Shown: positions 31,382 through 54,973 of the stretch, one piece after another
How the letters are laid out: every line of letters begins with the position of its first letter
Position numbering within the stretch: the stretch's first letter is position 1
NCBI GenBank assembly: GCA_947243845.1
Contig: CAMXIF010000010.1
Coordinates: forward strand, 39,698 to 103,697
Direction of reading: 5' to 3'
Origin: an uncultured bacterium
Lineage (GTDB): Bacteria > Bacillota > Clostridia > Lachnospirales > Lachnospiraceae
DNA: 64,000 nt
The notes under the pieces: generated by a model
Seen by the model: only the letters and a program-made list of their open reading frames with translations
Databases searched by the model: none
What the model was told of the DNA's origin: nothing
Program-made: the position numbers and the translations under genes

Positions 31382-33472
31382 ATGTACAAGAGTTATACCA
31401 TGGAACTTGCCGGGCGTACCCTGCGTGTGGACATCGGCAGAGTTGGTAAGCAGGCAAATGGCTGCGCATTTATGCAGTATGGAGAGACCACCGTGCTGTC
31501 CACGGCAACGGCGTCTGACAAGCCTAGGGATGGAATCGATTTCTTCCCCTGCAGCGTAGAGTATGAGGAGAAGTTCTATTCTGTCGGAAAGATTCCCGGC
31601 GGATTCAACAAGAGAGAGGGCAAGCCTTCTGAGAATGCAATTCTGACAAGCCGTGTGATTGACCGGCCCATGAGACCGCTTTTCCCGAAGGATTACCGCA
31701 ACGATGTAACCCTTAATAATATGGTCATGAGCGTGGATCCGGCTTGCCGTCCGGAACTGGTGGCCATGATCGGTACCGCGATTGCAACCTGCATTTCAGA
31801 TATTCCCTTTGCAGGTCCCTGTGCAATGACACAGATGGGTATGGTGGACGGTGAGTTGATCGTTAATCCTTCCCAGGAGCAGTGGGACAAGGGTGATCTG
31901 AAGATGACGGTGGCATCTACTGCAGAGAAAGTGATGATGATTGAGGCCGGTGCGAATGAGGTGCCGGAGGCCAAGGTGCTGGAGGCGATTTATAAGGCTC
32001 ACGAGATCAATCAGACGTTGATTGCCTTTATCAATAACATTGTAGCGGAAGTCGGCAAGCCGAAGCATACTTACGAGAGCTGCGCGGTTCCCGAGGAGAT
32101 GTTTGAGGAGATGAAGAAGATCGTGACACCGGAGGAGATGGAGACTGCAGTCTTCACCGATGAAAAGCAGGTGCGCGAGGAGAATATCAAGAATATTACG
32201 GCCAAACTGGAAGAGGCATTTGCAGAGAAGGAAGAGTATCTGGCAGTGCTTGGCGAAGCCGTATACCAGTATCAGAAAAAGACTGTCCGTAAGATGATCT
32301 TGAAGGATCACAAGCGTCCGGACGGCAGGGCATTAGACCAGATCAGGCCTTTGGCGGCAGAAGTGGATATCATTCCCAGAGTGCATGGATCCGCTATGTT
32401 TACCAGAGGGCAGACACAGATCTGCAATGTATGTACCTTGGCGCCTTTATCCGAGATGCAGAAAGTGGACGGCTTAGATGAGAACATCACAGGCAAGAGA
32501 TATATGCATCATTATAATTTCCCGTCCTATTCCGTAGGCGAGACTAAGGTCAGCAGGGGACCGGGACGCAGGGAGATTGGTCATGGTGCATTGGCGGAGA
32601 GGGCTTTGCTTCCGGTACTGCCTTCTGAGGAGGAGTTCCCGTACGCAATCCGTACGGTGTCCGAGACTTTTGAGTCAAACGGTTCCACCTCCATGGCATC
32701 CACCTGTGCTTCCTGTATGTCGCTGATGGCGGCGGGTGTGCCGATTAAGAAGATGGTTGCCGGCATCTCCTGCGGTCTGGTGACCGGTGATACGGATGAT
32801 GATTTCGTACTGTTGACAGATATCCAGGGACTTGAGGATTTCTTTGGCGATATGGACTTTAAGGTGACGGGTACCCATGAAGGTATCACGGCAATCCAGA
32901 TGGATATCAAGATTCACGGATTGACCAAGCCCATCGTGGAGGGCGCTATCGCAAGATGCCGTGAGGCAAGAGAATTTATCATGGCTAACTGCATGACACC
33001 TGCAATCGCAGCGCCTCGTAAAGAGGTTGGTAAGTATGCACCCAAGATTATATCTATTCAGATCGATCCGGATAAGATCGGTGATGTAGTGGGTCAGCGC
33101 GGCAAGACCATCAATGAGATAATTGCCCGTACAGGTGTGAAGATCGATATCACGGATGATGGAAATGTATCCGTGTGCGGTACAGACCATGAGATGATGG
33201 ACAAGGCAGTGGATATGATTAAGCTGATCACTACAGATTTTGAGGAAGGACAGATTTTCCAGGGAACTGTAGTCAGCATTAAGGAGTTCGGCGCTTTCAT
33301 TGAGTTTGCACCGGGCAAAGAAGGTATGGTTCATATCTCCAAGATTGCCAAGGAGAGGATCAATCATGTGGAGGATGTGCTTACGCTGGGTGACAAGGTG
33401 ACGGTAGTGTGCCTTGGCAAAGATAAGATGGGCAGAATCAGTTTCTCGATGAAGGATGTGGCCCAGAAGTAA
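31382..33472 (+). CDS. pnp: Polyribonucleotide nucleotidyltransferase
   Basis: RVIDRPMRPLF, RREIGHGALAE, ESNGSTSMAS, GDMDFKV, KH and S1 domains. ATG 31382 follows AAGGAG. Confidence 0.97.
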   Translation: MYKSYTMELAGRTLRVDIGRVGKQANGCAFMQYGETTVLSTATASDKPRDGIDFFPCSVEYEEKFYSVGKIPGGFNKREGKPSENAILTSRVIDRPMRPLFPKDYRNDVTLNNMVMSVDPACRPELVAMIGTAIATCISDIPFAGPCAMTQMGMVDGELIVNPSQEQWDKGDLKMTVASTAEKVMMIEAGANEVPEAKVLEAIYKAHEINQTLIAFINNIVAEVGKPKHTYESCAVPEEMFEEMKKIVTPEEMETAVFTDEKQVREENIKNITAKLEEAFAEKEEYLAVLGEAVYQYQKKTVRKMILKDHKRPDGRALDQIRPLAAEVDIIPRVHGSAMFTRGQTQICNVCTLAPLSEMQKVDGLDENITGKRYMHHYNFPSYSVGETKVSRGPGRREIGHGALAERALLPVLPSEEEFPYAIRTVSETFESNGSTSMASTCASCMSLMAAGVPIKKMVAGISCGLVTGDTDDDFVLLTDIQGLEDFFGDMDFKVTGTHEGITAIQMDIKIHGLTKPIVEGAIARCREAREFIMANCMTPAIAAPRKEVGKYAPKIISIQIDPDKIGDVVGQRGKTINEIIARTGVKIDITDDGNVSVCGTDHEMMDKAVDMIKLITTDFEEGQIFQGTVVSIKEFGAFIEFAPGKEGMVHISKIAKERINHVEDVLTLGDKVTVVCLGKDKMGRISFSMKDVAQK

Positions 33473-33517
33473 ATTTCTTCAGAATTAACTTCGCGAGATT
33501 TGCTTTGCAAACGCGGA
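33467..33517 (+). repeat. Two-hairpin REP/MITE-like element, degenerate copy 1
   Basis: AAGTAAATTT-CTTCAGAATTAACTTCGCGAGATTTGCTTTGCAAACGCGGA aligns with 40613-40665. Confidence 0.7.
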
Positions 33518-33524
33518 ATATGTG

Positions 33525-33573
33525 AAAAAGGAGCCTTTGGCATGATCGTTTGGTCATGTGATGGCTCCTTTTT
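33525..33573. terminator. Bidirectional terminator between pnp and pyrI
   Basis: AAAAAGGAGCC...GGCTCCTTTTT with an inner CATGA/TCATG stem. Confidence 0.75.
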
Positions 33574-33662
33574 AATGGCTTGCTATTTTGCTTAATATTT
33601 TAATAGCTTAATATTTTAATAGCTTGAGATTTTAATAGCTTGAAGGTATTAATAGTTTGAGA
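33572..33662. repeat. About 16-bp tandem repeat with core TTAATAGCTT
   Basis: Cores at 33600, 33616, 33632 and 33649, plus a variant at 33572. Confidence 0.8.
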
Positions 33663-33709
33663 TTGAATCAGTATCTGTCAGCGCCTGGCGCAGCTGACGG
33701 CCGCTTAGT

Positions 33710-34150
33710 CTACCACTGTGTGGCGGAACGGCTCGCTTTTTCCTCGCAGTATTTGCAGCGGTAGATTTCTTTTTCTTCATCCGCCAATACGAAGATGTGG
33801 GGAAGTTCCTGTTCGATGGAAGTGATGCAGCGGGGGTTTTTACACTTGATTACGTTGTGTATTTCCTGAGGGAGCACCAGTTCCTTTTTATCAACGATTT
33901 CACCGTCCTTGATCACGTTGACGGTGATATTGTGGTCGATGACGGCCAGAATATCGAGATTTAGTGTATTAATGTCACACTCTACTTTCAGAATATCTTT
34001 CTTGCCCATTTTATTGCTTCTGGCATTTTTGATGATAGCCACCGTACAATCCAGTTTATCCAGTTTCAGATGGTGGTAGATGGACAGGCTCTTGCCTGCT
34101 TCTATGTGGTCGAGCACGAAGCCCTCCTCGATTTTTCCTACATTTAACAT
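33710..34150 (-). CDS. pyrI: Aspartate carbamoyltransferase regulatory subunit
   Basis: GFVLDHI, GKKDILK and Zn ligands CKNPRCIT / YRCKYCE. Confidence 0.9.
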   Translation of the reverse strand: MLNVGKIEEGFVLDHIEAGKSLSIYHHLKLDKLDCTVAIIKNARSNKMGKKDILKVECDINTLNLDILAVIDHNITVNVIKDGEIVDKKELVLPQEIHNVIKCKNPRCITSIEQELPHIFVLADEEKEIYRCKYCEEKASRSATQW

Positions 34151-34215
34151 GTTAGCTCCTTTTCAGCGCCATAGTTGCGCATATCATTGTCGATAGAGAT
34201 GATTTCTTTCTTTTG

Positions 34216-34263
34216 ATCCGAGTCCGTGAAGCGGATCACGCAATCGAGCGTTGCTCGATTTGT
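34216..34263 (-). repeat. Two-hairpin REP/MITE-like element, copy 2
   Basis: The reverse complement matches 49038-49085 at 43 of 48 positions. Confidence 0.85.
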
Positions 34264-34279
34264 TAACCTTCGCAGTAGT

Positions 34280-35191
34280 TTACGCCAGTTCCAGCAGAGT
34301 TAGGATTAATGCCATTCTCACGTAGACACCATATTGTGCCTGTTTAAAGTAAACGGCGCGGGGATCATCATCCACTTCCACGGAAATCTCATTGACGCGG
34401 GGCAGGGGATGAAGTACCAGCATATCATCCATTGCGGCGGAAAGTTTATTCTTGTCCAAGATATAGAAATCTTTCAGACGGACATAGTCTTCTTCGTTGA
34501 AGAACCGTTCTTTCTGCACTCTGGTCATATAGAGGAGATCCAGATTGGGCATACAGTCCTCTAAGCGGATCACTTCCTCGTAGGCAATATTTCGTTCGGT
34601 GAGCATATCCGTGATGTAATCAGGAACTTTTAATTCCGGCGGGGAGATGAAGATAAAGCGGATATCCGGATATCTGATCAATGCATTGATCAGGGAATGT
34701 ACGGTACGGCCAAACTTAAGGTCACCGCATAGACCGATAGTAAAATCACCCAGCCGCCCCTTCAGGGAACGGATTGTGAGCAGATCTGTCAATGTCTGAG
34801 TAGGATGCTGATGTCCGCCGTCACCGGCATTGATGACCGGGATACCGGAGCGGCTGGCTGCCACCATGGGCGCGCCTTCTTTGGGATGGCGCATGGCGCA
34901 GATATCGGCATAGCAGGAGACGATACGGATGGTATCCGATACGCTTTCTCCTTTGGCGGCCGAGGAGGAGGAAGCATCCGAAAAACCAAGTACCTGTCCG
35001 CCGAGATTGAGCATGGCAGCTTCAAAGCTTAAGCGTGTGCGTGTACTGGGTTCGTAGAAGCAGGTAGCCAGTTTCTTTCCTTCACAGGCGTGCGCATATT
35101 TGGCCGGATTGGCCTCGATGTCATTGGCCAGATCAAAGAGTTTTTCCAGTTCCTCCACGGTAAAATCAAGAGGGTTCATTAAATGTCTCAT
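34280..35191 (-). CDS. pyrB: Aspartate carbamoyltransferase catalytic subunit
   Basis: [37 protein letters not shown] and LHPLPR. ATG 35191 follows GGAG. Confidence 0.97.
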
Positions 35192-35268
35192 ATGGGTCTC
35201 CATTCCGGAGTGTCTGCGAGATGGTGCTGCGCAGCGCTCCTTATTTAAGTAATAGGAATTCCTCGTCT

Positions 35269-35300
35269 AAAAAAATAGAAGAGAATGAATCTCTTCTATT
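35269..35300 (-). terminator. Terminator after the nitroreductase gene
   Basis: On the minus strand, AATAGAAGAGA-ttcat-TCTCTTCTATT followed by a T-run. Confidence 0.7.
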
Positions 35301-35308
35301 TGTATGAT

Positions 35309-35851
35309 TTATGATTGATAGGATAGTAACTCCTCCACAGGTTTTCTTCTGGGTGCAACAGGGGTCTCGTCAGGATAACCCACAGGAATGAGCGCCACCA
35401 GTTCTCTGTCTTCAGGAATCTGTAATAAGGACTCTGCCTCTTTCTGGTCGAAGAGTCCAAGAATTACGGAACCAAGGCCCTTTTCATAGGCCGCAAGGCA
35501 TAAGCACTGAGATGCGATGCCGGCATCATACATCTGCCAGCCATCACCGCGGGGAGTGCTGAAAGAACCGTCACGTTCGTAACCGCTGCGGTTCTTGATA
35601 ATGGTAACTGCCATCAGGACGGGAGCGGCAGCAATAATATCACCGTTAGGAGGATACATAGTGGTGCATTCTCTGGCAATCTGATCTTTCAATGCGCCCT
35701 CTACTGCAATATAGCGGGTAATCTGGGTATGTTTCCAGCTGGGTGCGTAGGAAGCTGTCTCGACAATCTCTGCCAGCAGTTCATGGGAAACGGCGTCAGC
35801 CTTGAACTTGCGGATACTTCTGCGTCCTAAGATACAATCTTTTGCGGTCAT
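35309..35851 (-). CDS. Nitroreductase family protein
   Basis: RRSIRKF, APSWKHTQ, DAGIA..LCLAA..GLGSVILG and IPVGYP. ATG 35851 follows AAGGAGGG. Confidence 0.9.
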   Translation of the reverse strand: MTAKDCILGRRSIRKFKADAVSHELLAEIVETASYAPSWKHTQITRYIAVEGALKDQIARECTTMYPPNGDIIAAAPVLMAVTIIKNRSGYERDGSFSTPRGDGWQMYDAGIASQCLCLAAYEKGLGSVILGLFDQKEAESLLQIPEDRELVALIPVGYPDETPVAPRRKPVEELLSYQS

Positions 35852-35906
35852 GTGTGTTCCCTCCTTATAATGTGGTGATGTAATAAACAGCATCTATATT
35901 TTGTAT

Positions 35907-35935
35907 ATCATATCACAAAGGCAGGGGGGATTCAA
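35907..35935 (-). promoter_or_regulatory. Promoter of the nitroreductase gene
   Basis: On the minus strand, TTGAAT, 17-bp spacer, TG-a-TATGAT. Confidence 0.65.
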
Positions 35936-36077
35936 GTGGAGGAGTATGATATTTTTTAGACAATATCACGCGAGTGTTTTTGAGGGAACTTGTGAAATGA
36001 GATGGGGTATGATATAGTAATCAGGGAGAATATACCCGGTAAATGGGATGAGTGATATTTGGAAGGAGAGTATAAAT

Positions 36078-36527
36078 ATGGAACAAAATAAGGTACAGAA
36101 AGGTATGGAACAGCAGAAGCCGGAGAATGATGCGAAGAAGGAAGAAGGTATGAAGGAGGCGGCCAAGGAGTATGTAGAACGTAAGCGGTGGCTGTTTTTC
36201 GGACTTCCTTTTACTTTTACAAAATATAAGGTGAATGAACAGGTAGTCACGATCAATGCCGGATTATTCAGCACAACAGAAAATGACTGCTATTTATATA
36301 AGATACAGGACGTGGAACTGCGGACGAGTCTTATTGAGCGTATCTTCGGATTAGGAACGGTGGCGTGTTTTACAGGCGATAACACGCATCCGCAGCTATT
36401 TCTGGAGCATATCAAACATGCCAAGGAGATCAAGGACTATATCCTGCATGTATCAGAGGAAGCCAGAAGAAAGAGGCGCACGCTGAATACGCTCAATATT
36501 GATGCGGATGACATTGATGAAATGTAG
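36078..36527 (+). CDS. Bacterial PH-domain (bPH_2-like) protein
   Basis: TKY...INAGLFS...YKIQDVEL..SLIERIFGLGTV pattern. ATG 36078 follows AAGGAG. Confidence 0.75.
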   Translation: MEQNKVQKGMEQQKPENDAKKEEGMKEAAKEYVERKRWLFFGLPFTFTKYKVNEQVVTINAGLFSTTENDCYLYKIQDVELRTSLIERIFGLGTVACFTGDNTHPQLFLEHIKHAKEIKDYILHVSEEARRKRRTLNTLNIDADDIDEM

Positions 36528-36941
36528 TCAGTCCGGGCGCAGGGTTTCATCGTTTTCCCGCAGGAGCCGCTCGAACAGCAGACCGCTGATAAACCAGAAT
36601 GGCGCGTAGTCAAGGCGAACTACCTTGGCCAGATTCCAGCGGGAGTTTTCGTAATTCCAGGGACACAGTTCGCGCCGGTTGAGCCATATGCCGGTGAGAA
36701 ATTCCCCGATGAAAATCAGGCAGGTGTAAATCAGTCCGCGGACAATCAGGCTGCAGTTTTTGATCAGGCGGCAGACTGGCGCAAGAAAGGCAGCCATCCC
36801 ATAAATGGGGAACATCCAGATGGAAGTGGCTCCAGGCAGTTTCAGATCTCTTCTGCGGAAGGCATGAAAGGCCGTGAAGGAGATTTCCAGAAACCATCCC
36901 AGCAGTCCGCAGTGTATGAAGTTGTGAATCAATTTTTTCAT
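36528..36941 (-). CDS. Small membrane protein, putative ABC permease family (DUF1113/CmpB-like)
   Basis: GWFLE, WMFPIYG, EFLTG, CPWNY and VRLDY motifs. Confidence 0.7.
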   Translation of the reverse strand: MKKLIHNFIHCGLLGWFLEISFTAFHAFRRRDLKLPGATSIWMFPIYGMAAFLAPVCRLIKNCSLIVRGLIYTCLIFIGEFLTGIWLNRRELCPWNYENSRWNLAKVVRLDYAPFWFISGLLFERLLRENDETLRPD

Positions 36942-37011
36942 AGTTACAGTATGGACGGAAATAACACTTTTATTCAGTGTGATATATATCGTTTATTGGA
37001 AAGGGGAGCAC

Positions 37012-38343
37012 ATGAACTACAGGGAAGCCATGGATTATATAGAGCAGCTGAAGCCGCTTGGCAGTGTCATGGGAATCGAGACGATGCATGGCTTGTGTGA
37101 GCGTCTGGGTAATCCGCAGGATAAGCTTAAGTTTGTGCATATTGCCGGTACCAATGGCAAAGGATCCGTGCTCGCCTATATTTCCACGGTACTGCAGACA
37201 GCCGGCTATAAGGTGGGACGTTACATTTCACCTGCGGTATTGGATTATCGGGAGCGCTTTCAGGTGGATGGCAGGATGATCACCCAGTCAGGGCTTTGTA
37301 AGTATCTGGAGCCTGTAAAAGAGGCAGCAGACGCCATGGCCGAAGAAGGGGGAGCGCATCCCACGCTCTTTGAGGTGGAGACGGCAGTGGCCTTTCTGTA
37401 TTTTGTGGACAGGGGCTGTGATCTGGTGGTGTTGGAGACGGGACTTGGAGGTTCTCTTGACGCTACCAATGTGGTAAGAAACACGGTGGCGGCTGTTTTT
37501 TCATCTATTAGTATGGATCATATGGAGATTCTGGGGGATTCGCTGGAGCAAATAGCGTTGTCCAAGGCAGGAATAATCAAGAACAAGTGTTATGTAATAT
37601 CAGCCAAGCAGCCGCCGGAAGTTATGAAGGTTCTTCGGCAGGCAGCATTGCTTCGCAAGGCCAAGTTCTTTACGGCGGATGCGGGCAAGGTTAAGAACGT
37701 GAAAAGCGGTGTGGCTAAACAACATTTCAGTTACGATAAATATAAAAACCTGGAGATAGGCATGCAGGGACAGTTCCAGATTGAGAACGCAGTGGTGGCA
37801 GTGGAGACGATTATAATGCTGGGCCGCTGTGGTTATCCTGTGCCGGAAGATAAATTGCGCGAGGGTCTTATGCAGACGAAGTGGCCGGGGCGCTTCCAGG
37901 TAATCGGAAAGAAACCGTTATTTATTGCAGACGGCGCGCACAATGAAGACGCGTCTAAGAGGCTGGCAGAAAGCATCCGCTTTTATTATGCGGACAGAAA
38001 GATTATATATATCATGGGCATGCTGCGGGACAAGGAACACGATAAGGTCATTCGTAATACCTTTGAACTGGCACAGCATATTATCACGGTGACGCCGCCT
38101 ATTAAAGAACGAGCGTTATCAGCCTATGAACTGGCGCAGAAAGTCGGGGAATATCATGACAGTGTGACAGTGGCGGACAGTGTACAGGAGGCGGTGGAGA
38201 TTGCCTATCTTCTCGCAGGTGCGGACAAGGAGACGGTGATCATCGCTTTTGGTTCCCTATCTTATCTTGGGGAATTGATGAATATAGTGGAACATAGAGA
38301 TACGATCAGGAGAGACTCTCATGGTAGATCAGAACAAAATTAG
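37012..38343 (+). CDS. folC: Folylpolyglutamate synthase / dihydrofolate synthase
   Basis: [28 protein letters not shown] and DGAHN. Confidence 0.95.
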
Positions 38344-38905: not shown

Positions 38906-38965
38906 GACTGAATTGAATCAGAAAAAATAACAATTTGAATCATTACGAAGGAAGGAGGAGCGCAA

Positions 38966-39784: not shown

Positions 39785-40631
39785 AATAATTATTGAAGAC
39801 CTCCAGATATACGCTCATCATGGCGTGTATCCGAAGGAGAATGAAATAGGACAGAATTTCTATGTCAGTGCCAGGCTGGAGACGGACACCAGAAGGGCAG
39901 GTGTGATGGATGATTTGAGCCTGTCCACAAACTATGGGGATGTCTGTCGGTTTCTACATACATTTCTGACAGAACATACCTATAAACTGATTGAGACGGC
40001 GGCGGAGCGGGCGGCAGAAGCGCTTCTTTTGACTTTTCCCCATATCAGGAGGGTTACTTTGGAAGTCAAAAAACCGGAGGCGCCGATTCCCCTTCCTTTT
40101 GGTTCCGTATCGGTCAGGATATGCAGGGGATGGCGGCGGGCCTATATCGCCTGCGGTTCCAATATGGGAGAGCGGGTACAATATTTAAACGCGGCAGTGG
40201 AAGCTTTTCGGGCGGATCGTAAATGTAACGTGGTACGCATCTCAGAATGGATGGAGACGACAGCTTACGGCGGTGTGGAACAGGACGATTTTATAAACGG
40301 TGCGATTGCGCTTGATACGATCTATACACCGGAGGAACTGTTGGAGAAGATTCATGTGATCGAGAAGGAGCAGGGACGGGAAAGACTGGTACATTGGGGT
40401 CCCCGTACACTGGATCTGGACATCCTTCTCTATGAAGATTGTGTGATGGATACAGAGGAATTGACGATTCCCCACAAAGATATGAAGAACCGTGACTTTG
40501 TACTGAAACCGCTTGCCCAGATTGCGCCCTATGAGAGACATCCCATCTTTGGGAAATCTGTCCTGCAGATGTATGAGGACGTAAAACAAGACGGAGAGGA
40601 ACACGTCAAAAAAAGTAAATTTACTTCGTAA
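39777..40631 (+). CDS. folK: Fused dihydroneopterin aldolase (FolB) + HPPK (FolK)
   Basis: N-terminal AHHGV..E..GQ, NYGDV, KLIET and KPEAP (FolB); C-terminal GSNMG, FINGA, WGPRTLDLDIL and IPH (FolK). Confidence 0.93.
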   Translation: MDEIIIEDLQIYAHHGVYPKENEIGQNFYVSARLETDTRRAGVMDDLSLSTNYGDVCRFLHTFLTEHTYKLIETAAERAAEALLLTFPHIRRVTLEVKKPEAPIPLPFGSVSVRICRGWRRAYIACGSNMGERVQYLNAAVEAFRADRKCNVVRISEWMETTAYGGVEQDDFINGAIALDTIYTPEELLEKIHVIEKEQGRERLVHWGPRTLDLDILLYEDCVMDTEELTIPHKDMKNRDFVLKPLAQIAPYERHPIFGKSVLQMYEDVKQDGEEHVKKSKFTS

Positions 40632-40665
40632 ATTAACTTTGCGAGATCTGCTACGCAGACTCGGA
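40613..40665 (+). repeat. Two-hairpin REP/MITE-like element, copy 3, overlapping the folK 3' end
   Basis: AATTTAC-ttc-GTAAATT then GCGAGATCTGC-tac-GCAGACTCGGA. A 21-bp part (40620-40640) is directly repeated at 40682-40702. Confidence 0.8.
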
Positions 40666-40708
40666 CAAGCAGAAGGATTGGTTTACTTCGTAAATTAACT
40701 TTTTTTAC

Positions 40709-40742
40709 TAAAAAAGAGGGCTGGCACCGGGCGGTGTCAGCC
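40709..40742 (-). terminator. Terminator for the DUF5050 gene
   Basis: GGCTGGCACC-gggc-GGTGTCAGCC hairpin. The A-run at 40709-40715 reads as the U-tract on the minus strand. Confidence 0.55.
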
Positions 40743-41780
40743 TATATTTTCGATAGCAGCCTGTTTGGCGGCATCAAATGTAGTCACATTGACAGGACCG
40801 AAAGTACTCGTCTTGTAGACAGGGACTGATTCGTTAAAGCCGTTAAAGTAAACATAGCTGGAGGTGATGTTGATGTTCTGGAACACACCTTCACGCACGA
40901 CTTCCTGGGCGGAACCATCAACGACCATTCGTTTGAGGGCGGGTGCATCTGCGGAACTGACCTGATAATAGATATAACTGCCGTAGACATTGAACATGTC
41001 GATACGGTCGTTGGTCAGTACTTCCACCACATTTCCGGATAAAGAATAGCGGCACAGACGGTAGTTTTCCGAAACATCCATATAATAGACATAACCGTCC
41101 TGGACGATAGGATTCCAGATATTGCCCTGCCATATGACGGAGTCTTTGTCGGTGGAAGTATCGAGGGCGTGGAGATAATGATCTTTATCGGTGCCCTGAT
41201 AATAAATCTTACCGTTCACATAGCAGTTTGGGTTAATGATTTCGTTTGCAACGGTCTGCTTTTCTTTCTTGTTGATCATGATCTTATCCAGAGAAGTTCC
41301 GGCGTTATTGTCATATTTTTCATAATAGAGATAGTTGCCGCACAGCTGCATGCTGACGATGTGGCATCTGTCCAGATTGACCACTGATTTACCCTTCAGA
41401 TTGCTTCTGTAGATACCGGAAGTCTTCATCATGTATCCCAGACCATCTCCGCCGGATGTGCTGGAACCGCTGGTCATGGCAAAGTACAGATATTTACCTG
41501 CGGCATTGATGGAGGAAACAGGACTGCTGTTCAGCTTCTTGATATCTGTCTCATCGGGATTCATGGAATAGAGAGCATTGTTGTCATATGCGTTGGCGAA
41601 GTATACCCGCCCGTCCAGTTCACAGAAGAATCCGCCATTGTTGAGATTCCCGGCAGTATTGCCGCTGGTATTTTCATCATTCAAGGTAATTCTGCCGCTC
41701 AGTGTGGCAAGCAGTAATAGCAGAATAAGTATAACGCATGTTATTGAGATGATCAGGATGTTCTTGCGTGTACTAGTCAT
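40737..41780 (-). CDS. DUF5050-like beta-propeller protein with an N-terminal membrane anchor
   Basis: N-terminal TM, GNLNNGG..C..DGRVYFAN, and repeated G.YLYF / YIYY strands. Confidence 0.75.
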   Translation of the reverse strand: MTSTRKNILIISITCVILILLLLLATLSGRITLNDENTSGNTAGNLNNGGFFCELDGRVYFANAYDNNALYSMNPDETDIKKLNSSPVSSINAAGKYLYFAMTSGSSTSGGDGLGYMMKTSGIYRSNLKGKSVVNLDRCHIVSMQLCGNYLYYEKYDNNAGTSLDKIMINKKEKQTVANEIINPNCYVNGKIYYQGTDKDHYLHALDTSTDKDSVIWQGNIWNPIVQDGYVYYMDVSENYRLCRYSLSGNVVEVLTNDRIDMFNVYGSYIYYQVSSADAPALKRMVVDGSAQEVVREGVFQNINITSSYVYFNGFNESVPVYKTSTFGPVNVTTFDAAKQAAIENIG

Positions 41781-41810
41781 TTCTCTCTCCCCCTACTGAC
41801 TGATACCTCT

Positions 41811-41839
41811 ATTATATCTATAATCTTGCTTGCTATCAA
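41811..41839 (-). promoter_or_regulatory. Promoter of the DUF5050 gene
   Basis: On the minus strand, TTGATA, 17-bp spacer, TATAAT. Confidence 0.7.
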
Positions 41840-41920
41840 GGGGGATTTGGGGTAAACTGTTGTTAAGTTTATGGTGAAGAGTTGACCGGATTACAGATGA
41901 GTTTAGGAGAGGCAGAAGAC

Positions 41921-43048
41921 ATGGATTTACTGACATTACGCGGACAGCTGGATGAGATTGATGAGCAGATTGTGAAGCTTTATGAGGAGCGCATGGAAAT
42001 CTCATCTCAGGTAGCTGATTATAAAATAGAGACCGGTAAGAAGGTGTTTGACAAGACCAGGGAGCAGGAAAAGCTGCAGAAGGTGAAGTCCCTGACGCAC
42101 AATGATTTCAATGCATATGGAGTGCAGGAACTTTTTGAGCAGATCATGTCCATGAGCCGTAAGCTGCAGTACAATAAGTTGGCAGAGGCAGGCGCCCTTG
42201 GCAGACTGCCGTTTATCGGCGTTGACAGTCTGGATGTCGGGAAGGCCAGGGTAGTCTTTCAGGGGGCGGAGGGATCTTATTCCCAGATGGCGATGATACA
42301 GTATTTTGGCGAAGCGGTCAACGCATTTCATGTGGATACATTCCGGGATGCTATGTGCGCGATTGAAGATGGCAGCGCTGACTTTGCAGTGCTTCCCATA
42401 GAAAATTCCACAGCCGGAATCGTCAATGAAATTTATGACCTTCTGGTAGAGTTTGAGAATTATATTGTAGGAGAGCAGATCATTAAGATTGAACACTGCC
42501 TGATGAGTGTGCCGGGTGCGGATATTGCCGGGATTGAAAGGGTCTATTCCCATCCCCAGTCCCTGATGCAGAGCGCAAGATATCTGAGCGGGCATGAGAA
42601 CTGGCAGCAGATCAGTATACAGAACAATGCTTTTGCGGCGAGAAAGGTCAGTGAGGATCAGGATGCCACACAGGCTGCCATAGCCAGCGAACAGGCGGCG
42701 AAGATTTATGGACTGGAGATTTTAAAGCGGGGCGTCAACCAGTCAGAAACAAATTCCACCCGCTTTATCATCGTTACCAATCAGAAAATATTCTTAAAAG
42801 AGGCAGGAAAGATCAGCATATGTCTGGAAGTACCCCATGAGAGCGGTTCTTTATATCACATGCTGTCGCATTTTATCTATAACAATCTGAATATGACCAA
42901 GATTGAGAGCCGTCCCATTGAGGACAGAAACTGGGAATACAGGTTTTTTATTGATTTTGAGGGAAATCTGGCGGACGGTGCGGTTAAGAATACGCTGCGG
43001 GGACTTCGGGAAGAGGCACGCAATATGAAGATTCTGGGAAATTACTGA
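41921..43048 (+). CDS. pheA: Bifunctional chorismate mutase / prephenate dehydratase
   Basis: LRGQLDEIDEQIV (CM_2), QGAEGSYS, PIENST, SHPQ, NSTRF, GSLY..L, NMTKIESRP and ILGNY. Confidence 0.93.
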   Translation: MDLLTLRGQLDEIDEQIVKLYEERMEISSQVADYKIETGKKVFDKTREQEKLQKVKSLTHNDFNAYGVQELFEQIMSMSRKLQYNKLAEAGALGRLPFIGVDSLDVGKARVVFQGAEGSYSQMAMIQYFGEAVNAFHVDTFRDAMCAIEDGSADFAVLPIENSTAGIVNEIYDLLVEFENYIVGEQIIKIEHCLMSVPGADIAGIERVYSHPQSLMQSARYLSGHENWQQISIQNNAFAARKVSEDQDATQAAIASEQAAKIYGLEILKRGVNQSETNSTRFIIVTNQKIFLKEAGKISICLEVPHESGSLYHMLSHFIYNNLNMTKIESRPIEDRNWEYRFFIDFEGNLADGAVKNTLRGLREEARNMKILGNY

Positions 43049-43067
43049 TACGGAGAGGCATAAGACA

Positions 43068-44357
43068 ATGAGAGAAGAAGAATTGGTTATTTACAGGGAG
43101 TTTGCGGACAGTGCGATCCTGAAGGATATGGTATGGCTGATGGAGCATTACCGGGCAGGGGACGGCAGGGCGAGGCCGCTTCTCTACGAGTGCATGCACG
43201 GCCTGTTAAAGACAGCGGCGGATCACGGTTTTTACGGGAATCTCTGGCATTGTTATCTGACAAATCTACTGGTCAATAATGAGAACAGCTATAGTATGGC
43301 CTGTGAGATCAGAGGCGAGGTGGAGGGCAGCATCAATGAACTGGTTCTGCACGATATCACCATATTTAAAGAATTTTATGATTATAATTTCCTGGAGATG
43401 ATGGAAATCCTAAAGGCGCCGGAGTTTGCGGTCATCTTATCTTATGAGAAGCCGTCTCATGCGGGAAAGGTCTATAATAAACGTATCCGCGACAGAATCT
43501 GTACGCTGGCGAAGCAGTTTGTGGAGAATGAGGATGCCCGCGCCATGAAGGCTACGCTTACCCAGTTCTATCGGGAGTACGGTGTGGGTAATATGGGACT
43601 GCACAAGGCTTTCCGGGTAGCACATACCGATGAGGGAGCAAAGATCGTACCGATTCTGAACATTGCCCATGTGCATCTGGATGACTTGGTGGGATATGAG
43701 ATTCCCAAGAAAAAACTGATCGATAATACAGAGGCCTTTGTATCGGGCAGACGAGCCAATAACTGTCTGCTCTTCGGAGATGCCGGGACGGGAAAATCCT
43801 CCTGCGTAAAGGCCATTGCCAATGAGTATTATGACAGAGGGCTTCGAATCATTGAACTGTACAAGCACCAGTTTCAGGACTTGAACAGCGTGATATCCCA
43901 AGTGAAGAATCGGAATTATAAATTCATTATCTACATGGACGATTTGAGTTTCGAGGATTTTGAGATTGAATATAAATATCTGAAGGCTGTCATCGAGGGC
44001 GGCCTTGAGAAAAAACCTGCCAATGTACTGATCTATGCCACATCCAACAGACGGCATCTGATCCGGGAGAATTACAGTGACAAGGCAGACCGCAGGGAAG
44101 AGGACATGCATGCGGGAGATACGGTGCAGGAGAAGTTGTCCTTAGTCTATCGGTTCGGGGTGTCTATTTTCTTCTGCGCACCGGATAAAAAGCAGTTCCA
44201 GCAGATTGTCAAGGTGCTGGCAGACAGAAACGGTGTGAACATGGATGAGGAGACACTGTACCTGGAGGCCAATAAGTGGGAACTTGCCCACGGAGGACTC
44301 TCCGGCAGGACGGCACAGCAGTTTATCGATTATCTGCTGGGACAGAAGGCAGAGTAA
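43068..44357 (+). CDS. DUF815-family AAA+ ATPase with an N-terminal extension
   Basis: ANNCLLFGDAGTGKSS, YMDDLSFE, YATSNRRHL and SGRTAQQF. Confidence 0.85.
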   Translation: MREEELVIYREFADSAILKDMVWLMEHYRAGDGRARPLLYECMHGLLKTAADHGFYGNLWHCYLTNLLVNNENSYSMACEIRGEVEGSINELVLHDITIFKEFYDYNFLEMMEILKAPEFAVILSYEKPSHAGKVYNKRIRDRICTLAKQFVENEDARAMKATLTQFYREYGVGNMGLHKAFRVAHTDEGAKIVPILNIAHVHLDDLVGYEIPKKKLIDNTEAFVSGRRANNCLLFGDAGTGKSSCVKAIANEYYDRGLRIIELYKHQFQDLNSVISQVKNRNYKFIIYMDDLSFEDFEIEYKYLKAVIEGGLEKKPANVLIYATSNRRHLIRENYSDKADRREEDMHAGDTVQEKLSLVYRFGVSIFFCAPDKKQFQQIVKVLADRNGVNMDEETLYLEANKWELAHGGLSGRTAQQFIDYLLGQKAE

Positions 44358-44392
44358 AACGCGGCAGACTATATAGGGAAGAGGGGATTCAT

Positions 44393-45916
44393 ATGAAAAC
44401 ATTTGCGGCCATTGATGTGGGCTCCTACGAACTGGCGATGAAGATTTTCGAGATATCTTCCAAGAGCGGAATCCGGGAGATCGATCATATCAGGCATCGT
44501 ATTGATCTGGGGTCGGATACCTTTGCCACCGGTAAGATCAGCTATGAGCGGGTGGATGAACTGTGCAGGGTACTGCGGGATTATGCGGCCATCATGAAAG
44601 GATACCGGGTGGAGGATTACAGGGCATACGGTACCAGTGCCATTCGGGAGACGGAGAACACGGCGATTGTCTTGGATCAGATCGCTCAGAGGACAGGAAT
44701 CCGGATTGAGGTTTTGAGCAATTCTGAGCAGCGGTTTCTAAATTACAAATCCATTGCTTCCAAAGGTGACGCCTTTAACAAGATTATAGAGAAGGGGACG
44801 GCCATAGTCGATATTGGCGGCGGCAGTATCCAGATATCTTTGTTTGATAAGGATACGCTGGTAACTACGCAGAATATGAGGCTTGGTGTTTTAAGGCTGC
44901 AGGATCAGATCGGGCGGTTGAATATCCGGCCCGGTCAGTATGACGAGATTCTGGATGAAATGGTCAGTTCCCAGCTGGCAGTGTTTAAGAAACTGTATCT
45001 GAAAGACAGACAGATCGACAATATCATTGTGGTGGATGATTATATCTCGGAAATTGTGGGTAAGAATGTGCTTGGTCTGGAGCAGAGCAATATCGAAGCG
45101 CCTGCCGTGGAGGTGTTCCTGGAGCGGATCAAGAACAAATCCACACAGGAGGCGGCGCATGCGCTGGACATGCCGGAGGAAAATATCCCGCTTCTGTTTA
45201 TTGCCTGCGTGCTGGTCAATCGAATCGCCAAAGTGATGGATGCCAAGATGATCTGGGCGCCGGGTGTGACGCTCTGCGATGGTATGGCATATGAATATGG
45301 CGAGAAAAATAAGATCATCAGAGAAAATCATGACTTTGAGCAGGATATCATCGCCTGTGCACAGAATATCAGCAAACGTTACATGGGCAGCAGGCGCAGG
45401 AGCGAGACACTGGAAAAGATAGCGCTAACCATCTTTGACAGTATGAATAAGGTGCATGGATTGGGGAAGAGAGAGCGGCTGCTTCTGCGGATTGCTACAC
45501 TTTTGCATGATTGCGGTAAGTACATAAGTCTGGTGAATCTGGGCGAATGTTCTTATAATATCATCATGTCCACGGAGATTATCGGACTTTCCCATATAGA
45601 GCGGGAGATTGTGGCCAATGTGGTAAAATACAATCATATGGATTTCGAGTACAGCGAGGTGGTAGGAAGCAGGGCTATCGATAAGGCCGCTTATCTGACG
45701 ATTGCCAAGTTGACGGCGATTTTGAAGATTGCCAATGGTCTGGACCGCAGTCATAAGCAGAAATTTAAAAACGTGAAGACAGCCTTGAAGGATGAAAAAC
45801 TTGTCATCACGGTGGATGCCTCAGTGGATATCACGTTGGAGAAGGGACTGTTTACAAAGCGGGCGGAGTTCTTTGAAGAAGTATTTAGCGTGAAACCGAT
45901 TATAAAACAGCGTTAG
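44393..45916 (+). CDS. ppx: Exopolyphosphatase Ppx/GppA family with HD domain
   Basis: AAIDVGSY, GTSAIRE, DIGGGS and LLHDCGK; adjacent to ppk1. Confidence 0.88.
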   Translation: MKTFAAIDVGSYELAMKIFEISSKSGIREIDHIRHRIDLGSDTFATGKISYERVDELCRVLRDYAAIMKGYRVEDYRAYGTSAIRETENTAIVLDQIAQRTGIRIEVLSNSEQRFLNYKSIASKGDAFNKIIEKGTAIVDIGGGSIQISLFDKDTLVTTQNMRLGVLRLQDQIGRLNIRPGQYDEILDEMVSSQLAVFKKLYLKDRQIDNIIVVDDYISEIVGKNVLGLEQSNIEAPAVEVFLERIKNKSTQEAAHALDMPEENIPLLFIACVLVNRIAKVMDAKMIWAPGVTLCDGMAYEYGEKNKIIRENHDFEQDIIACAQNISKRYMGSRRRSETLEKIALTIFDSMNKVHGLGKRERLLLRIATLLHDCGKYISLVNLGECSYNIIMSTEIIGLSHIEREIVANVVKYNHMDFEYSEVVGSRAIDKAAYLTIAKLTAILKIANGLDRSHKQKFKNVKTALKDEKLVITVDASVDITLEKGLFTKRAEFFEEVFSVKPIIKQR

Positions 45917-45971
45917 GACGCAGCGTTGACAGCCTGTGTTCCAAGAATATATAGAAGGAGGCCATAGGGGG

Positions 45972-48101
45972 ATGGCGGAAGTAAAAGATTTTTCCAGAGA
46001 TGAATATTACAGCAACCGGGAATTGAGCTGGCTATTGTTTAATAAGAGAGTTCTGGCGGAAGCGAAGGATAAGCAGATGCCTTTGTTTGAAAGATTAAAG
46101 TTTCTTGGCATCACAGCATCCAATCTGGATGAGTTCTTTATGGTGCGGGTGGCATCTTTAAAAGATATGGTGAATGCCGGTTATAAGAAACGGGATATCG
46201 CAGGAATGACTACGGAAGAACAGCTTGTGAGGGTGAATGAGGAGACACATAAGCTGGTGGCACAGCAGTATAATACCTATAACAGGTCTCTTTTGCCGCA
46301 GCTTTTGGAAAACGGTCTGCATCTGATCAATCATCATGAGGATTTGAAAAGAGAGGAAGCCGCTTATGTGGATCACTATTTTGCTGAGAGTGTATACCCG
46401 GTACTCACACCCATGGCGGTGGATTCCTCCAGACCATTTCCACTAATCCGCAATAAATCCCTGAATCTGGGTGCTCTTGTCACGAAGAAAAATGGCGTGG
46501 GAGAGTTGGAGTTTGCCACCGTGCAGGTGCCAAGCGTTCTCTCAAGGATCGTGACGATCCCTTCTGAGGAGGGTGTCAAACTGATTTTGCTGGAAGAGGT
46601 GATTGAGCGCAACATTCATAAACTGTTCTTAAATTATGATATTGTCTGCACCTATCCTTTCCGGATCATGAGAAATGCGGATCTGACGATCGAGGAGGAA
46701 GAGGCGGAGGATCTGCTGCAGGAGATTGAGAAACAGCTGAAAAAGAGACAGTGGGGTCAGGTAATCCGTCTGGAAGTGGAAGAGGGAATTGACAGCAGAC
46801 TTTTGAAACTGATCAGGGAAGAACTTATGATTCCGAAAGAAGATATCTATGCCATCAACGGCCCTTTGGATCTGACTTTCCTGATGAAGATGTATGATCT
46901 GGACGGCTTTGATCACTTGAAAGAGCACAGTTACTTAAAGCCCCAGCCGGTGCCGGAACTGCCGGAGGATGCAGATGTGTTTGCAAAAATCCGGGAAGGG
47001 GATATCCTGATGCATCATCCTTACCAGACTTTTGAGCCTGTGGTGCGTTTTATCAGACAGGCGGCAAAAGATCCCGAAGTACTGGCTATCAAGCAGACAT
47101 TGTACCGTGTCAGCGGTAATTCCCCGATCATAGCTGCGCTGGAGCAGGCAGCGGAGAATGGCAAACAGGTGTCGGTGCTGGTGGAATTAAAAGCCAGGTT
47201 TGACGAGGAGAACAATATTGTCTGGGCCAGAAAACTGGAAAAAGCGGGCTGTCATGTCATCTATGGACTGGTGGGGCTTAAGACGCACAGCAAGATTACC
47301 CTGGTGGTCAGAAGAGAAGAGAATGGCATCCGGCGGTATGTGCATCTGGGCACCGGCAACTATAATGATTCTACGGCGAAACTGTATACGGATGTGGGAT
47401 TGTTCACCTGTTCGGAGGCCATCGGAGAGGATGCAACAGCCGTGTTTAATATGCTCTCCGGCTATTCAGAGCCGAGAAGCTGGAATAAGCTGTCCCTGGC
47501 GCCATACTGGCTGAAGGATAGATTTATATATCTGATCGGCAGGGAGCGTGACCATGCCTTGGAAGGGCGGCCTGCCAGAATCATTGCCAAGATGAATTCT
47601 CTGTGTGATAAGAGTGTGATTGAAGCGCTCTATGCGGCCAGCACTGCCGGAGTAAAGATTGACTTGATCATTCGGGGAATCTGCTGCCTTAGGACAGGAA
47701 TCAAGGGTGTCAGTGAAAATATCACAGTGCGCTCTATTGTGGGTAATTATCTGGAACATGCCAGAATCTTTTATTTTGAAAACGATGGCAAACCGGAATA
47801 TTATTGTGCCAGTGCGGACTGGATGCCGAGGAACCTGGACCGCCGTGTGGAGATTCTGTTCCCCATAGAGAAGGCGCCTTTACAGGAAAAACTCTGGCAT
47901 ATTCTGGAGTGCCAGCTTAAAGATACGGTGAAGGCATCTATTTTGCAGCCGGACGGCAGTTATGAAAAGATAGACAAGCGGGGGAAGGAAGTGTTTAACG
48001 CCCAGCTCAACTTCTGTAAAGAGGCGAAATCTGTGTCTAAAGAAGAGTCAGAGACTGCCCATAAACGTATATTTATTCCTAAGATGCATCATAATGATTG
48101 A
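45972..48101 (+). CDS. ppk1: Polyphosphate kinase 1
   Basis: NRELSWL, SNLDEFFMVRV, HHPY, ELKARFDE, LKTHSK, GTGNYN and SADWMPRNLDRRVE. Confidence 0.97.
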   Translation: MAEVKDFSRDEYYSNRELSWLLFNKRVLAEAKDKQMPLFERLKFLGITASNLDEFFMVRVASLKDMVNAGYKKRDIAGMTTEEQLVRVNEETHKLVAQQYNTYNRSLLPQLLENGLHLINHHEDLKREEAAYVDHYFAESVYPVLTPMAVDSSRPFPLIRNKSLNLGALVTKKNGVGELEFATVQVPSVLSRIVTIPSEEGVKLILLEEVIERNIHKLFLNYDIVCTYPFRIMRNADLTIEEEEAEDLLQEIEKQLKKRQWGQVIRLEVEEGIDSRLLKLIREELMIPKEDIYAINGPLDLTFLMKMYDLDGFDHLKEHSYLKPQPVPELPEDADVFAKIREGDILMHHPYQTFEPVVRFIRQAAKDPEVLAIKQTLYRVSGNSPIIAALEQAAENGKQVSVLVELKARFDEENNIVWARKLEKAGCHVIYGLVGLKTHSKITLVVRREENGIRRYVHLGTGNYNDSTAKLYTDVGLFTCSEAIGEDATAVFNMLSGYSEPRSWNKLSLAPYWLKDRFIYLIGRERDHALEGRPARIIAKMNSLCDKSVIEALYAASTAGVKIDLIIRGICCLRTGIKGVSENITVRSIVGNYLEHARIFYFENDGKPEYYCASADWMPRNLDRRVEILFPIEKAPLQEKLWHILECQLKDTVKASILQPDGSYEKIDKRGKEVFNAQLNFCKEAKSVSKEESETAHKRIFIPKMHHND

Positions 48102-48165
48102 GTGCAGGGAGAAGTGGAAGAGGCAGGGCGTAAGAGCGCGGTATACTGCACATATGGAGGTTAAC

Positions 48166-48762
48166 ATGAAAATATATCTGGCTTCGGCATCGCCTAGGCG
48201 GAAAGAACTGCTCAGACAGGTGGGACTTCCCTTTAAGGTCATGCCCAGTACGGTGGAGGAAAAAGTCACCAAAGAAAAACCGGATGAGGTGGTGGAAGAA
48301 TTATCCTATCAGAAAGCAGTGGATGTCTGCGGCAGACTGACGGCGGAAGGCAAAGAAGACTTTGTGGTCATCGGTGCGGATACGGTAGTGGCGGCCTGGG
48401 GCAAAATCCTCGGAAAGCCAAAGGACAAAGAAGACGCAGAGCGGATGCTTGGCGATCTGCAGGGGGCAGGCCATCAGGTTTATACAGGAGTTACTCTTGC
48501 CTGGAGGTATAAGGATATGTCCGCCATGTACGCCACCTTCAGTGAGTGTACGGATGTGACCATGTATAGCATGAGCAAAGAGGAAATTAAGCGATATGTG
48601 GACAGCGGCGAACCCATGGACAAGGCAGGGGCTTATGCGATTCAGGGTCTGTGCGCCGCCTATATTCAGGGAATCTGCGGAGATTACAATAATGTGGTGG
48701 GACTGCCTGTGGGAAGGCTCTGTCAGGAACTGAAAAGAAGAGGGCTTTTCCCGGACAAGTAA
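48166..48762 (+). CDS. maf: Maf-family nucleoside triphosphate pyrophosphatase
   Basis: LASASPRRKELL, IGADTVV, DKAGAYAIQG and NVVGLP. Confidence 0.95.
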   Translation: MKIYLASASPRRKELLRQVGLPFKVMPSTVEEKVTKEKPDEVVEELSYQKAVDVCGRLTAEGKEDFVVIGADTVVAAWGKILGKPKDKEDAERMLGDLQGAGHQVYTGVTLAWRYKDMSAMYATFSECTDVTMYSMSKEEIKRYVDSGEPMDKAGAYAIQGLCAAYIQGICGDYNNVVGLPVGRLCQELKRRGLFPDK

Positions 48763-48772
48763 GGAGGGTATT

Positions 48773-49030
48773 ATGTTTGATGAGAAGGTAGTACAGTGTT
48801 TTCTGGATAATCAGTTGCAGCTGTATCCGGAAAAAGTAGCAGAAACGCCGGAGGAGGCGGAGAATTTCTTGGAAGAATGCATGGCAGTGGTGGTAGATTC
48901 TGTCAGGGAAGTCTGGGAGTTCTTTGAGGAAGAAGGCATGGATATGGAGGGCGCCGATGAGGAAGAGATTCTGGAAGCGTCCGAAGTGTTTGAGGTCGGT
49001 GACGGCAGATATTTAATCGTAGAAGGCTGA
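48773..49030 (+). CDS. Small, highly acidic hypothetical protein (85 aa)
   Basis: Strong RBS AAGGAGG; about 30% Asp/Glu; function not recognisable. Confidence 0.75.
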   Translation: MFDEKVVQCFLDNQLQLYPEKVAETPEEAENFLEECMAVVVDSVREVWEFFEEEGMDMEGADEEEILEASEVFEVGDGRYLIVEG

Positions 49031-49037
49031 ATCGAGC

Positions 49038-49085
49038 ACAAATCGAGCATTGCTCGATTGCGAGATCCGCTGCGCGGACTCGGAT
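49038..49085 (+). repeat. Two-hairpin REP/MITE-like element, copy 4, with flanking partial copies
   Basis: AATCGAGC-att-GCTCGATT + GCGAGATCCGC-tgc-GCGGACTCGGAT. Partial repeats lie at 49030-49038 and 49107-49121. Confidence 0.85.
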
Positions 49086-49141
49086 GTATGTACGGACTAG
49101 AATCTGTGCGCGGACTCGGATTCGCGTGAGGTTTTAGGCTG

Positions 49142-54920: not shown

Positions 54921-54973
54921 GGTTCCTCCGCATATCCGAGTCCACAAACGAACTTTGCTTGTCTGTTATAACA

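Follow-up and report, generated by a model that had tools for sequence, protein, structure and literature searches.

The window analysed here is a 64,000-nt stretch (C10:39698-103697) of a 3.39-Mb draft genome in 77 contigs (G000), assembled from an uncultured mouse-gut bacterium of the Lachnospiraceae (GCA_947243845.1), and it carries four copies of a small repeat composed of two hairpins. The copies lie at the 3' ends of pnp, pyrB, folK and an open reading frame (ORF) for an acidic protein of 85 amino acids, and all four are present where the original prediction, made from the window alone, had placed them (Table 1). Their attachment to gene ends, which formed part of that prediction, is close, as in each case the stop codon of the upstream gene either falls within the element or precedes it by 1 nt. 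Copy 2 provides the final two codons of pyrB together with its stop codon TAA (34280-34282), the TAA of folK (40629-40631) lies within the 3' arm of hairpin A of copy 3, and copy 4 begins 1 nt past the TGA (49028-49030) of the acidic ORF. Because the predicted terminator of pnp lies downstream of copy 1, this copy is situated within the pnp 3' untranslated region (UTR); the terminator is kept in strains and in the sister lineage. The cleanest of the four is copy 3, which reads AAAGTAAATTTAC-TTC-GTAAATTAACTTT followed by GCGAGATCTGC-TAC-GCAGACTCGGA and whose predicted fold is the model structure, with exactly two hairpins (z -4.5 as RNA and -5.6 as DNA). Copy 4 (nhmmer E 9e-14) has a fold z of -3.6 against shuffled sequences, and the folds of the decayed copy 1 (z -1.0) and of copy 2 (z -1.4; nhmmer match 34180-34282, E 1.8e-16) are not clearly better than those of shuffles. 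The copies after pyrB and after the acidic ORF match at exactly 43 of 48 positions, as had been claimed, and the inner stems quoted for the second hairpin (TCCGC/GCGGA, TCTGC/GCAGA and TTTGC/GCAAA) are correct.

The repeat is modular. A full unit, 70-85 nt long, begins with hairpin A or B as its head, continues with hairpin C as its core and ends with tail D, and it reads (A-run) GTAAATTTGC-TTC-GCAAATTAAC TTT GCGAGATCCGC-TTC-GCGGACTCGGA TAAGCGGAGGAATTTCCTATACCAT (A-run). Taken singly, hairpin A is AAAGTAAATTTGC-TTC-GCAAATTAACTTT, hairpin B is AAATCGAGC-AAA-GCTCGATT, hairpin C is GCGAGATCCGC-TTC-GCGGACTCGGA, and tail D (..TTTCCTATACCATAAAA) closes in an A-run. Module B stands in either for the TTT spacer or for the whole of A. 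The two sequence versions of the first hairpin with the same shape, which had been noticed in the window, correspond to these two heads: A is found in copies 1 and 3, and the other head, AAATCGAGC-nnn-GCTCGATT, in copies 2 and 4. Tail D was added to the description by the present analysis, as were the remnant of a second unit, the partial hairpin C and the marginal fragment listed in Table 1. Units are joined head-to-tail in arrays of up to at least five (C11:88.8k, C3:135.4k, C6:51.2k, C50:10k and the end of C8), and many copies are located at contig ends. Truncated or alternative heads also occur, both as copies with C and D only and as chimeras that join the 5' arm of A without a break to the 3' arm of C (C2:86019 and C32:20752 among them); these chimeras show deletion between the GCTTCGC motif common to the tips of both hairpins.

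Table 1. Copies of the repeat and associated features in the window (R1, covariance model of hairpins A and C).
Feature	Coordinates	Strand	Details
Copy 1 (after pnp)	33463..33527	+	Decayed hairpin A (33466-33492) and hairpin C (33493-33517); R1 match 51.4 bits
pnp stop codon TAA	33470-33472		Inside copy 1, as the TAA of the element's GTAAAT
pnp intrinsic terminator, as read from the sequence	33525..33574	+	AAAAAGGAGCC...GGCTCCTTTTT; 3' of copy 1
Copy 2 (after pyrB)	34163..34290	-	128-nt pyrB-pyrI segment: remnant of A, hairpin B, hairpin C, tail
Copy 3 (end of folK)	40609..40674	+	Canonical A-C: hairpin A (40612-40640), hairpin C (40641-40665); R1 match 89.8 bits
Linker and hairpin-A remnant of a second unit after copy 3	40675..40702	+	GGTTTACTTCGTAAATTAACTTT
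Copy 4 (after the acidic ORF)	49031..49099	+	Duplicated 5' arm of B (49031-49039), hairpin B (49040-49059), hairpin C (49060-49084)
Partial repeat, 3' half of hairpin C	49106..49121	+	TGCGCGGACTCGGAT; nhmmer 49107-49135, E 0.43, weak alone
Marginal fragment, 3' half of C and start of D	54923..54948	-	nhmmer E 0.013 only; uncertain

The four copies belong to a large family, as had been expected from their density in the window. A strict form of the core occurs 12 times in the genome and a slightly looser one 20 times. A hidden Markov model (HMM) built from core copies gave 147 nhmmer matches at E<=1, 109 of them at E<1e-3, in 88 loci, and R1 gave 89 matches at E<=0.01, which amounts to about 90-150 copies in the genome besides the four of the window. 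In an ungapped Hamming scan we counted 102 C modules (<=5 mismatches), 67 A modules, which come in three length variants, 22 B modules and approximately 48 D tails above chance; the same scan of shuffled sequence returned no A or C modules. A loose regular expression allowing 2+2 mismatches matched shuffled sequence as often as real sequence (980 versus 883 matches) and was abandoned for the HMM and covariance searches.

The compensatory base changes seen among the four copies persist in a larger alignment of 87 copies, which comprises the window and 80 loci from at least 13 other genomes. Standard pairs make up 98.3% of the pair cells, and 14 of 21 pairs have changed on both sides, although the selection of copies by an exact core understates variation in helix C and the forcing of B hairpins onto helix A inflates double changes there. 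None of 500 shuffles attained the observed pairing values, sliding the partner by 1-3 columns reduced pairing to 19-44%, and RNAalifold, run independently, recovered the same two hairpins. Within this genome, variants of the inner C stem are CCGC/GCGG (48), TTGC/GCAA (6), TCGC/GCGA (5) and CTGC/GCAG (5), and those of the outer A stem are AAAGT/ACTTT, AAGGT/ACCTT, GGAGT/ACTCC, AGAGT/ACTCT and GAAGT/ACTTC. A switch like that of terminator and antiterminator, in which TCCGCTT of the 5' arm of C would pair instead with AAGCGGA of tail D, was rejected as a general feature, because it covaries in copy 3 only and other copies break it.

These pairings appear to be a property of the DNA. Both strands of the element fold equally well, and across 87 resident C hairpins 87% of the cells pair; with the variable T7-A19 position set aside, transitions account for almost every unpaired cell (28 G.T and 32 A.C on the top strand). 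Selection on a sense RNA would be expected to spare G.U and remove A.C, whereas neutral decay of a DNA palindrome would leave both alike; the equal frequency of G.T and A.C mismatches therefore points to a palindrome at the DNA level that decays neutrally rather than to a sense RNA under selection. The original prediction had proposed selection for structure, and this holds in so far as pairing is kept; the selection seems to act at the time of copying, however, and not on each resident copy. Of the 87 C loops, 74 have the form T-N-C, which is G-N-A on the opposite strand, and two copies carry a flipped GAA loop on the top strand. G-N-A triloops are a very stable type of DNA triloop.

Placement relative to genes is not random. 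Intergenic positions account for 75 of the 88 loci, and by context 32 loci are co-directional and sense, 16 co-directional and antisense, 15 convergent and 4 divergent, so that divergent gene pairs are avoided (4 of 67 intergenic loci). A detectable canonical terminator lies 3' of the element in 10 loci and 5' of it in 1; since the terminators mostly lie downstream, the element is usually part of a 3' UTR. The copies also adjoin stop codons at a preferred distance. Measured from the G of GTAAAT, a same-strand predicted gene ends at -9 to +16 nt in 23 of the 48 A-type copies of this genome, most often at -6 (9 copies) or -3 (6), and at -9 to +19 nt in 30 of 57 copies of the other genomes, again with a peak at -6 (11 copies). 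The stop codon is TAA in 28 of these 30, as against 45% of stops genome-wide. The sequence motif alone fails to explain this link, because only 5-6.5% of the TAAAA(A) motifs in non-coding DNA outside elements are stop codons.

The sense orientation described for the four window copies is a weaker tendency in the genome as a whole. It amounts to only about 2:1 in co-directional runs, and when loci are divided by the locally dominant gene strand the bias is gone in majority-strand runs (20 sense, 18 antisense) and complete in minority-strand runs (11 and 0); at 48 of 80 loci it is the minority gene strand that carries the top strand of the element. A strand bias thus exists, but the split does not tell a transcriptional origin from a replicational one, or from both. 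The majority gene strand was used here since GC skew, taken as an indicator of replication direction, was confounded by 85% of genes lying on the G-rich strand. Two further readings of the element were set aside: A AAA AAG as a frameshift site, which lies past the stop codon in most copies, and a cassette array resembling integron attC sites, given that the genes are core genes in conserved order. Outward promoter or Shine-Dalgarno-like signals in tail D, judged by eye, are limited to weak hexamers.

Empty and filled sites could be compared between sister species and between strains. G301 is the closest species in our collection, with flanks 80-92% identical, and it has no copy at 7-8 of 14 loci compared, nor at the pyrB-pyrI site. 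The sites without a copy are pyrB/pyrI, C8:66722, C19:9897, C41:3957, C9:88315, C1:99383 and C11:88784, the last of which holds a three-unit array in our genome. At several of these G301-empty sites the outgroups have no copy either, so these represent gains in the present lineage; copy 2 is missing from other relatives as well. After folK, G301 retains only a B-like remnant. At 49038 one aligned match spans the site and is 45 nt shorter, and a second alignment shows no recognisable module; the site of copy 4 is empty in G003, G298, G009 and G021, and the copy is present in five of five contigs of the same species. Shared sites also differ in composition. Elements occur in G301 after pnp and at C1:140268, C11:90786 and C22:28412 as well, though of another make-up: after pnp there are three A modules, and C1:140268 has a B head instead of the A head of our genome. 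The C1:140268 element is lodged precisely between the final sense codon and the TAG that originally followed it, and this TAG is still present 3' of the element.

Variation of the same kind is found at shorter range. Contigs encoding an identical PyrI are split between those with the 128-nt pyrB-pyrI element and those of a sister lineage with 14 nt, GAATTGAGGTATAG, in its place (93% nucleotide identity). In most relatives of the same genus pnp ends in GTx-TAA with no element there, and in that sister lineage (L173/L174) it is followed by A-C-D-A-C or A-C-D-A'/C', versus the one decayed A-C of the window. Strains L189 and L191 have a complete second A-C unit after copy 3 and are 33 nt longer there. 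Units have also entered coding sequence. At C11:4654-4734 an 81-nt A-C-D unit, antisense to the gene, adds 27 codons in frame, and exactly this stretch is missing from the orthologues of G292 and G304, which are 94-96% identical; the unoccupied site reads CCTGTAAAAATA, and an AAAA(A) run is present at both junctions of the insert. A B-C-D unit at C6:81835-81905 forms 24 in-frame codons of a C-terminal tail and is not in G301, and C9:55514-55587, in a 1307-aa ORF, is a third candidate, for which no orthologue matched across the insert. Units have therefore been repeatedly inserted and lost since the species, and even the strains, of the genus split, and arrays grow and shrink.

The family is confined to one genus, in agreement with the suggestion that it was lineage-specific. 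In the same GTDB genus 22 of 41 species have R1 matches, from 1 to 85 per genome (E<=1e-6, with scoring limited to 127 candidates per genome), and 19 have none; the highest counts are 85 in G303, 43 in the present genome, 12 each in G292 and G306, 11 in G002 and 10 in G003. Among 249 genomes from other genera of the family there was one marginal match, and none in 16 other families of the order. Matches to the exact 25-nt core were confined to more than 100 loci in Lachnospiraceae metagenome-assembled genomes (MAGs) from mouse gut, in one MAG labelled Bacteroides and in the isolate 'bacterium 0.1xD8-71'. The MAG labelled 'uncultured Bacteroides sp.' (CAYUKT01; L004, L006, L025, L037, L039, L054, L063 and L075) has many copies and a PyrI identical to that of the window, and its label is probably wrong. 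The idea that the repeat might be undescribed also stood up, as Rfam at gathering and permissive thresholds returned only a tRNA in the window (the best hit over copy 3, E 0.15, lies far below gathering), and no description of such a repeat in the Lachnospiraceae was found in Rfam or in the literature searched.

Several observations concern the surroundings of the copies. Just past the pnp terminator (33575-33665) lies a 16-nt tandem repeat resembling ATATTTTAATAGCTTA, whose copy number varies among contigs with identical PyrI (variants of +16 nt and +46 nt). For the neighbouring gene of copy 3 (40737-41777) no exact-protein record was found. Outside the window, at C6:114229-114330, three tandem variant hairpins, TCTCGTTTGCGAGGATTGCTTCGCAACCTCGG, lie directly upstream of the start of rpsH (S8) in the ribosomal protein operon. 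At the site in G017 orthologous to C19:9897 (L165, G017:C4:285350-285700), a perfect, terminator-like module B, AAAAAACGAGCAAAGCTCGTTTTTT, lies right past the stop codon and is followed by a T-run.

Taken together, the elements probably constitute a family of small mosaic hairpin repeats, non-autonomous and specific to this genus, of the same general type as the repetitive extragenic palindromic (REP) sequences, bacterial interspersed mosaic elements (BIMEs) and BOX elements. Like REPs and BIMEs, they are short imperfect palindromes in high copy number, mostly outside genes and often in mosaic clusters; both kinds adjoin or overlap gene ends, supply stop codons and have some copies in ORFs, and both vary in site occupancy between close relatives (PMC3733652). 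The GTAG tag of proteobacterial REPs often supplies TAG stops to flanking ORFs, and REPs are found inside ORFs as well (PMC3733652), so the supply of stop codons described here is a parallel and not a first. REPs of the CGTC type are likewise without a dedicated transposase (PMC3733652). The differences are nevertheless clear. The tag here is GTAA(A)T, with its G and T paired and an A.A mismatch in the stem, whereas the GTAG or CGTC tag of REPs is unpaired at the end; the unit consists of two distinct hairpins and a tail arranged head-to-tail, whereas REP doublets forming hairpins (REPINs) are inverted pairs and BIMEs alternate in orientation with linkers; and the host, which has no REP-associated tyrosine transposase (RAYT), is a Firmicute.

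Among Firmicutes a close parallel in design is the BOX element of S. pneumoniae (boxA-boxB(n)-boxC), which is also modular with a variable number of internal modules (PMC3049150). Both are strongly folded, enriched 3' of genes, co-transcribed and restricted to close relatives, and in both the mobiliser is uncertain (PMC3049150). The resemblance lies in modular design only. No likeness of sequence or module order was seen in a comparison made by eye alone, and BOX has terminal inverted repeats, target duplications and ends that pair together, in contrast to the self-contained hairpins and unrelated ends found here. The pneumococcal SPRITE repeats share the strong enrichment right past the 3' ends of genes (PMC3049150). 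As for terminator-like repeats, the G017 module B resembles them and has a T-run, while no U-run was found directly after hairpins A or C, as an intrinsic terminator would have, and a separate terminator usually follows; the sequence of module B hints that it may derive from, or be able to act as, such a terminator. Rickettsia palindromic elements are similarly inserted in frame in protein genes without breaking them, but most copies here are outside genes and the sequences are unrelated. The family thus fits none of these classes fully, departing from REPs and REPINs in tag and RAYT, from BIMEs in lacking alternating orientation, from MITEs (transposable elements of the miniature inverted-repeat type) in lacking inverted ends and from terminators in lacking the U-run. 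What is new is the family itself, which is uncatalogued; the kind to which it belongs, the small dispersed hairpin repeats of bacteria, is already known.

Some points weigh against reading the repeats as mobile. No mobilising gene was identified, and the element has no terminal inverted repeats, its ends being unrelated (5' AGTAAATTTGC or AAATCGAGC; 3' CCTATACCAT); the 77-contig draft is 95.7% complete, so a transposase could be missing from it. Target duplications are clear in one case only, and the filled and empty pairs at C1:99383, pnp and pyrB look like replacement of a few bases and not simple insertion. The presence of A heads versus B heads at some sites could be explained by recurrent insertion, by gene conversion, or by ancient residence with remodelling. 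Lastly, the link to stop codons needs either strong purifying selection elsewhere, or real targeting, or a benefit.

Movement of the REP/REPIN type, in which hairpins are cut and copied as single-stranded DNA by a RAYT (a Y1 HUH enzyme of the IS200/IS605 superfamily), would suit short hairpins with a conserved GTAA at or inside the 5' arm, which recalls the GTAG tag of REPs, and the predominance of T-N-C loops in C; it needs no target duplication, and the excess of top strands on the minority gene strand is like the replication-strand bias of IS608. We nonetheless consider it unlikely. The original prediction had named a RAYT or IS200/IS605 TnpA gene flanked by the motif as a possible partner, and such a gene was searched for and not found: a six-frame search of this genome with PF01797 (Y1) gave no match, although the same search was positive in six control genomes. 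PF01797 is present in 12 of the 41 genomes of the genus and is not in the two richest in elements (85 and 43 matches), G305 has 20 Y1 genes and one element, and the rate of Y1 in copy-rich species (3 of 9) versus copy-poor ones (9 of 32) shows that copy number does not track Y1, PF01797 being missing from six of the nine copy-rich draft assemblies. Moreover, the tag is neither GTAG nor CGTC, and the units are tandem and direct, not inverted pairs. A TnpB/Cas12f-like ORF outside the window (C7:533-712; 512-aa open frame, PF07282 E 4.7e-11) was rejected as a partner, with no element adjoining it and no Y1 TnpA in the genome. That the repeats are classical MITEs, duplicating a few target bases and relying on a DDE transposase in the way that RUP relies on IS630-Spn1, is very unlikely. 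Their small size and AT-richness, the AAAA(A) on either side of one clean insertion and possible TA or TAAA(A) repeats at two further junctions would fit, but the junctions differ between loci, the ends are unrelated, and self-BLAST of the assembly revealed no multi-copy insertion sequence (IS), with no repeat of >=400 bp except one tandem pair, in a draft of the kind that collapses IS copies. Fainter still is the chance that the repeats resemble short interspersed elements (SINEs), being copied through RNA by target-primed reverse transcription into T/A-rich sites. We know of no SINE-like target-primed mechanism in bacteria, the A-run is merely 4-7 nt, and no reverse transcriptase was linked to the elements, though no search aimed at reverse transcriptases was made; the conserved 3' part ending in an A-run, the A-rich flanking repeats, the alternative or truncated 5' heads and the copies in transcribed 3' UTRs would agree with it, while DNA slippage explains the tandem arrays and loop-to-loop deletions more simply.

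A different kind of explanation is that the repeats are functional cis-acting RNAs kept after stop codons, as 3' UTR stabilisers against 3'-5' exonucleases, as elements of the termination context or as terminators. REPs near stop codons affect mRNA decay and translation, as for the malE-malF REP, and Liang, Rudd and Deutscher reportedly described such effects in 2015. The position between stop codon and terminator, the fixed distance from the stop, the sense bias of about 2:1 and the stable hairpins with compensatory changes are what such a role would produce. We find it improbable, however, in view of the 19 species of the genus that have no element and whose orthologous genes manage without, the occurrence of both orientations (20 sense and 18 antisense in majority-strand runs), the copies within coding sequence, the tolerance of G.U being no greater than that of A.C, the lack of a U-run after hairpins A and C, and the decay of resident copies such as 1 and 2. 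A more speculative proposal, to which we give a small chance, is a mover that is neither HUH nor DDE acting on inverted ends, and that places a precise hairpin cassette at sites of T plus A-run headed by a stop codon, for example by target-primed copy-in from an RNA or single-stranded DNA template, regularly rewriting last codons and stops and adding in-frame peptides. Such a mover is compatible with the data, if unproven, because of the unrelated ends, the A-run in tail and flanks, the alternative 5' heads, the absence of Y1 from the richest genomes and an approximately 8-fold excess of stop sites over the share predicted from the target motif alone.

If the elements are a family of non-autonomous hairpin repeats, as we favour, their history might be as follows. 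New copies would enter at a T followed by an A-run, which may often be the run that starts with the TAA stop of a gene. In a genome that is 90% coding, insertions in promoters and leaders would be removed, and the survivors would gather between stop codon and terminator because the other non-coding DNA is mostly promoter or 5' UTR; the short stretch from stop to terminator often begins TAAAA. Real targeting to stops, or a benefit, is a possible alternative source of the link. Surviving copies would be transcribed as part of the 3' UTR, and arrays may change in size by slippage or by recombination at the GCTTCGC motif of the hairpin tips. The palindromes would be kept because the copying machinery needs a DNA hairpin, the resident copies then decaying neutrally, and if the element influences mRNA 3' ends or translation termination at all, it would do so as a by-product.

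Repeats of this small, dispersed kind have been well described from proteobacteria, streptococci, neisseriae and rickettsiae, and the family described here adds one from the Lachnospiraceae, a dominant family of the gut. Its traits of note are the lack of an HUH partner, the regular take-over of stop codons and the residence in frame within proteins. The elements break assemblies, as seen from the many copies at contig ends, in core genes (pnp, pyrB and folK, for example) they alter the C-terminus and the stop codon, and they add 24-27 in-frame residues to proteins. Because they vary between strains, they have consequences in these genomes for annotation, for the typing of strains and for how 3' UTRs are read. 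A copy-rich family without an HUH transposase provides a usable case for understanding how hairpin repeats spread, and the hairpins at stop codons offer a natural series for the effects of 3' structure on termination and mRNA decay in Firmicutes.

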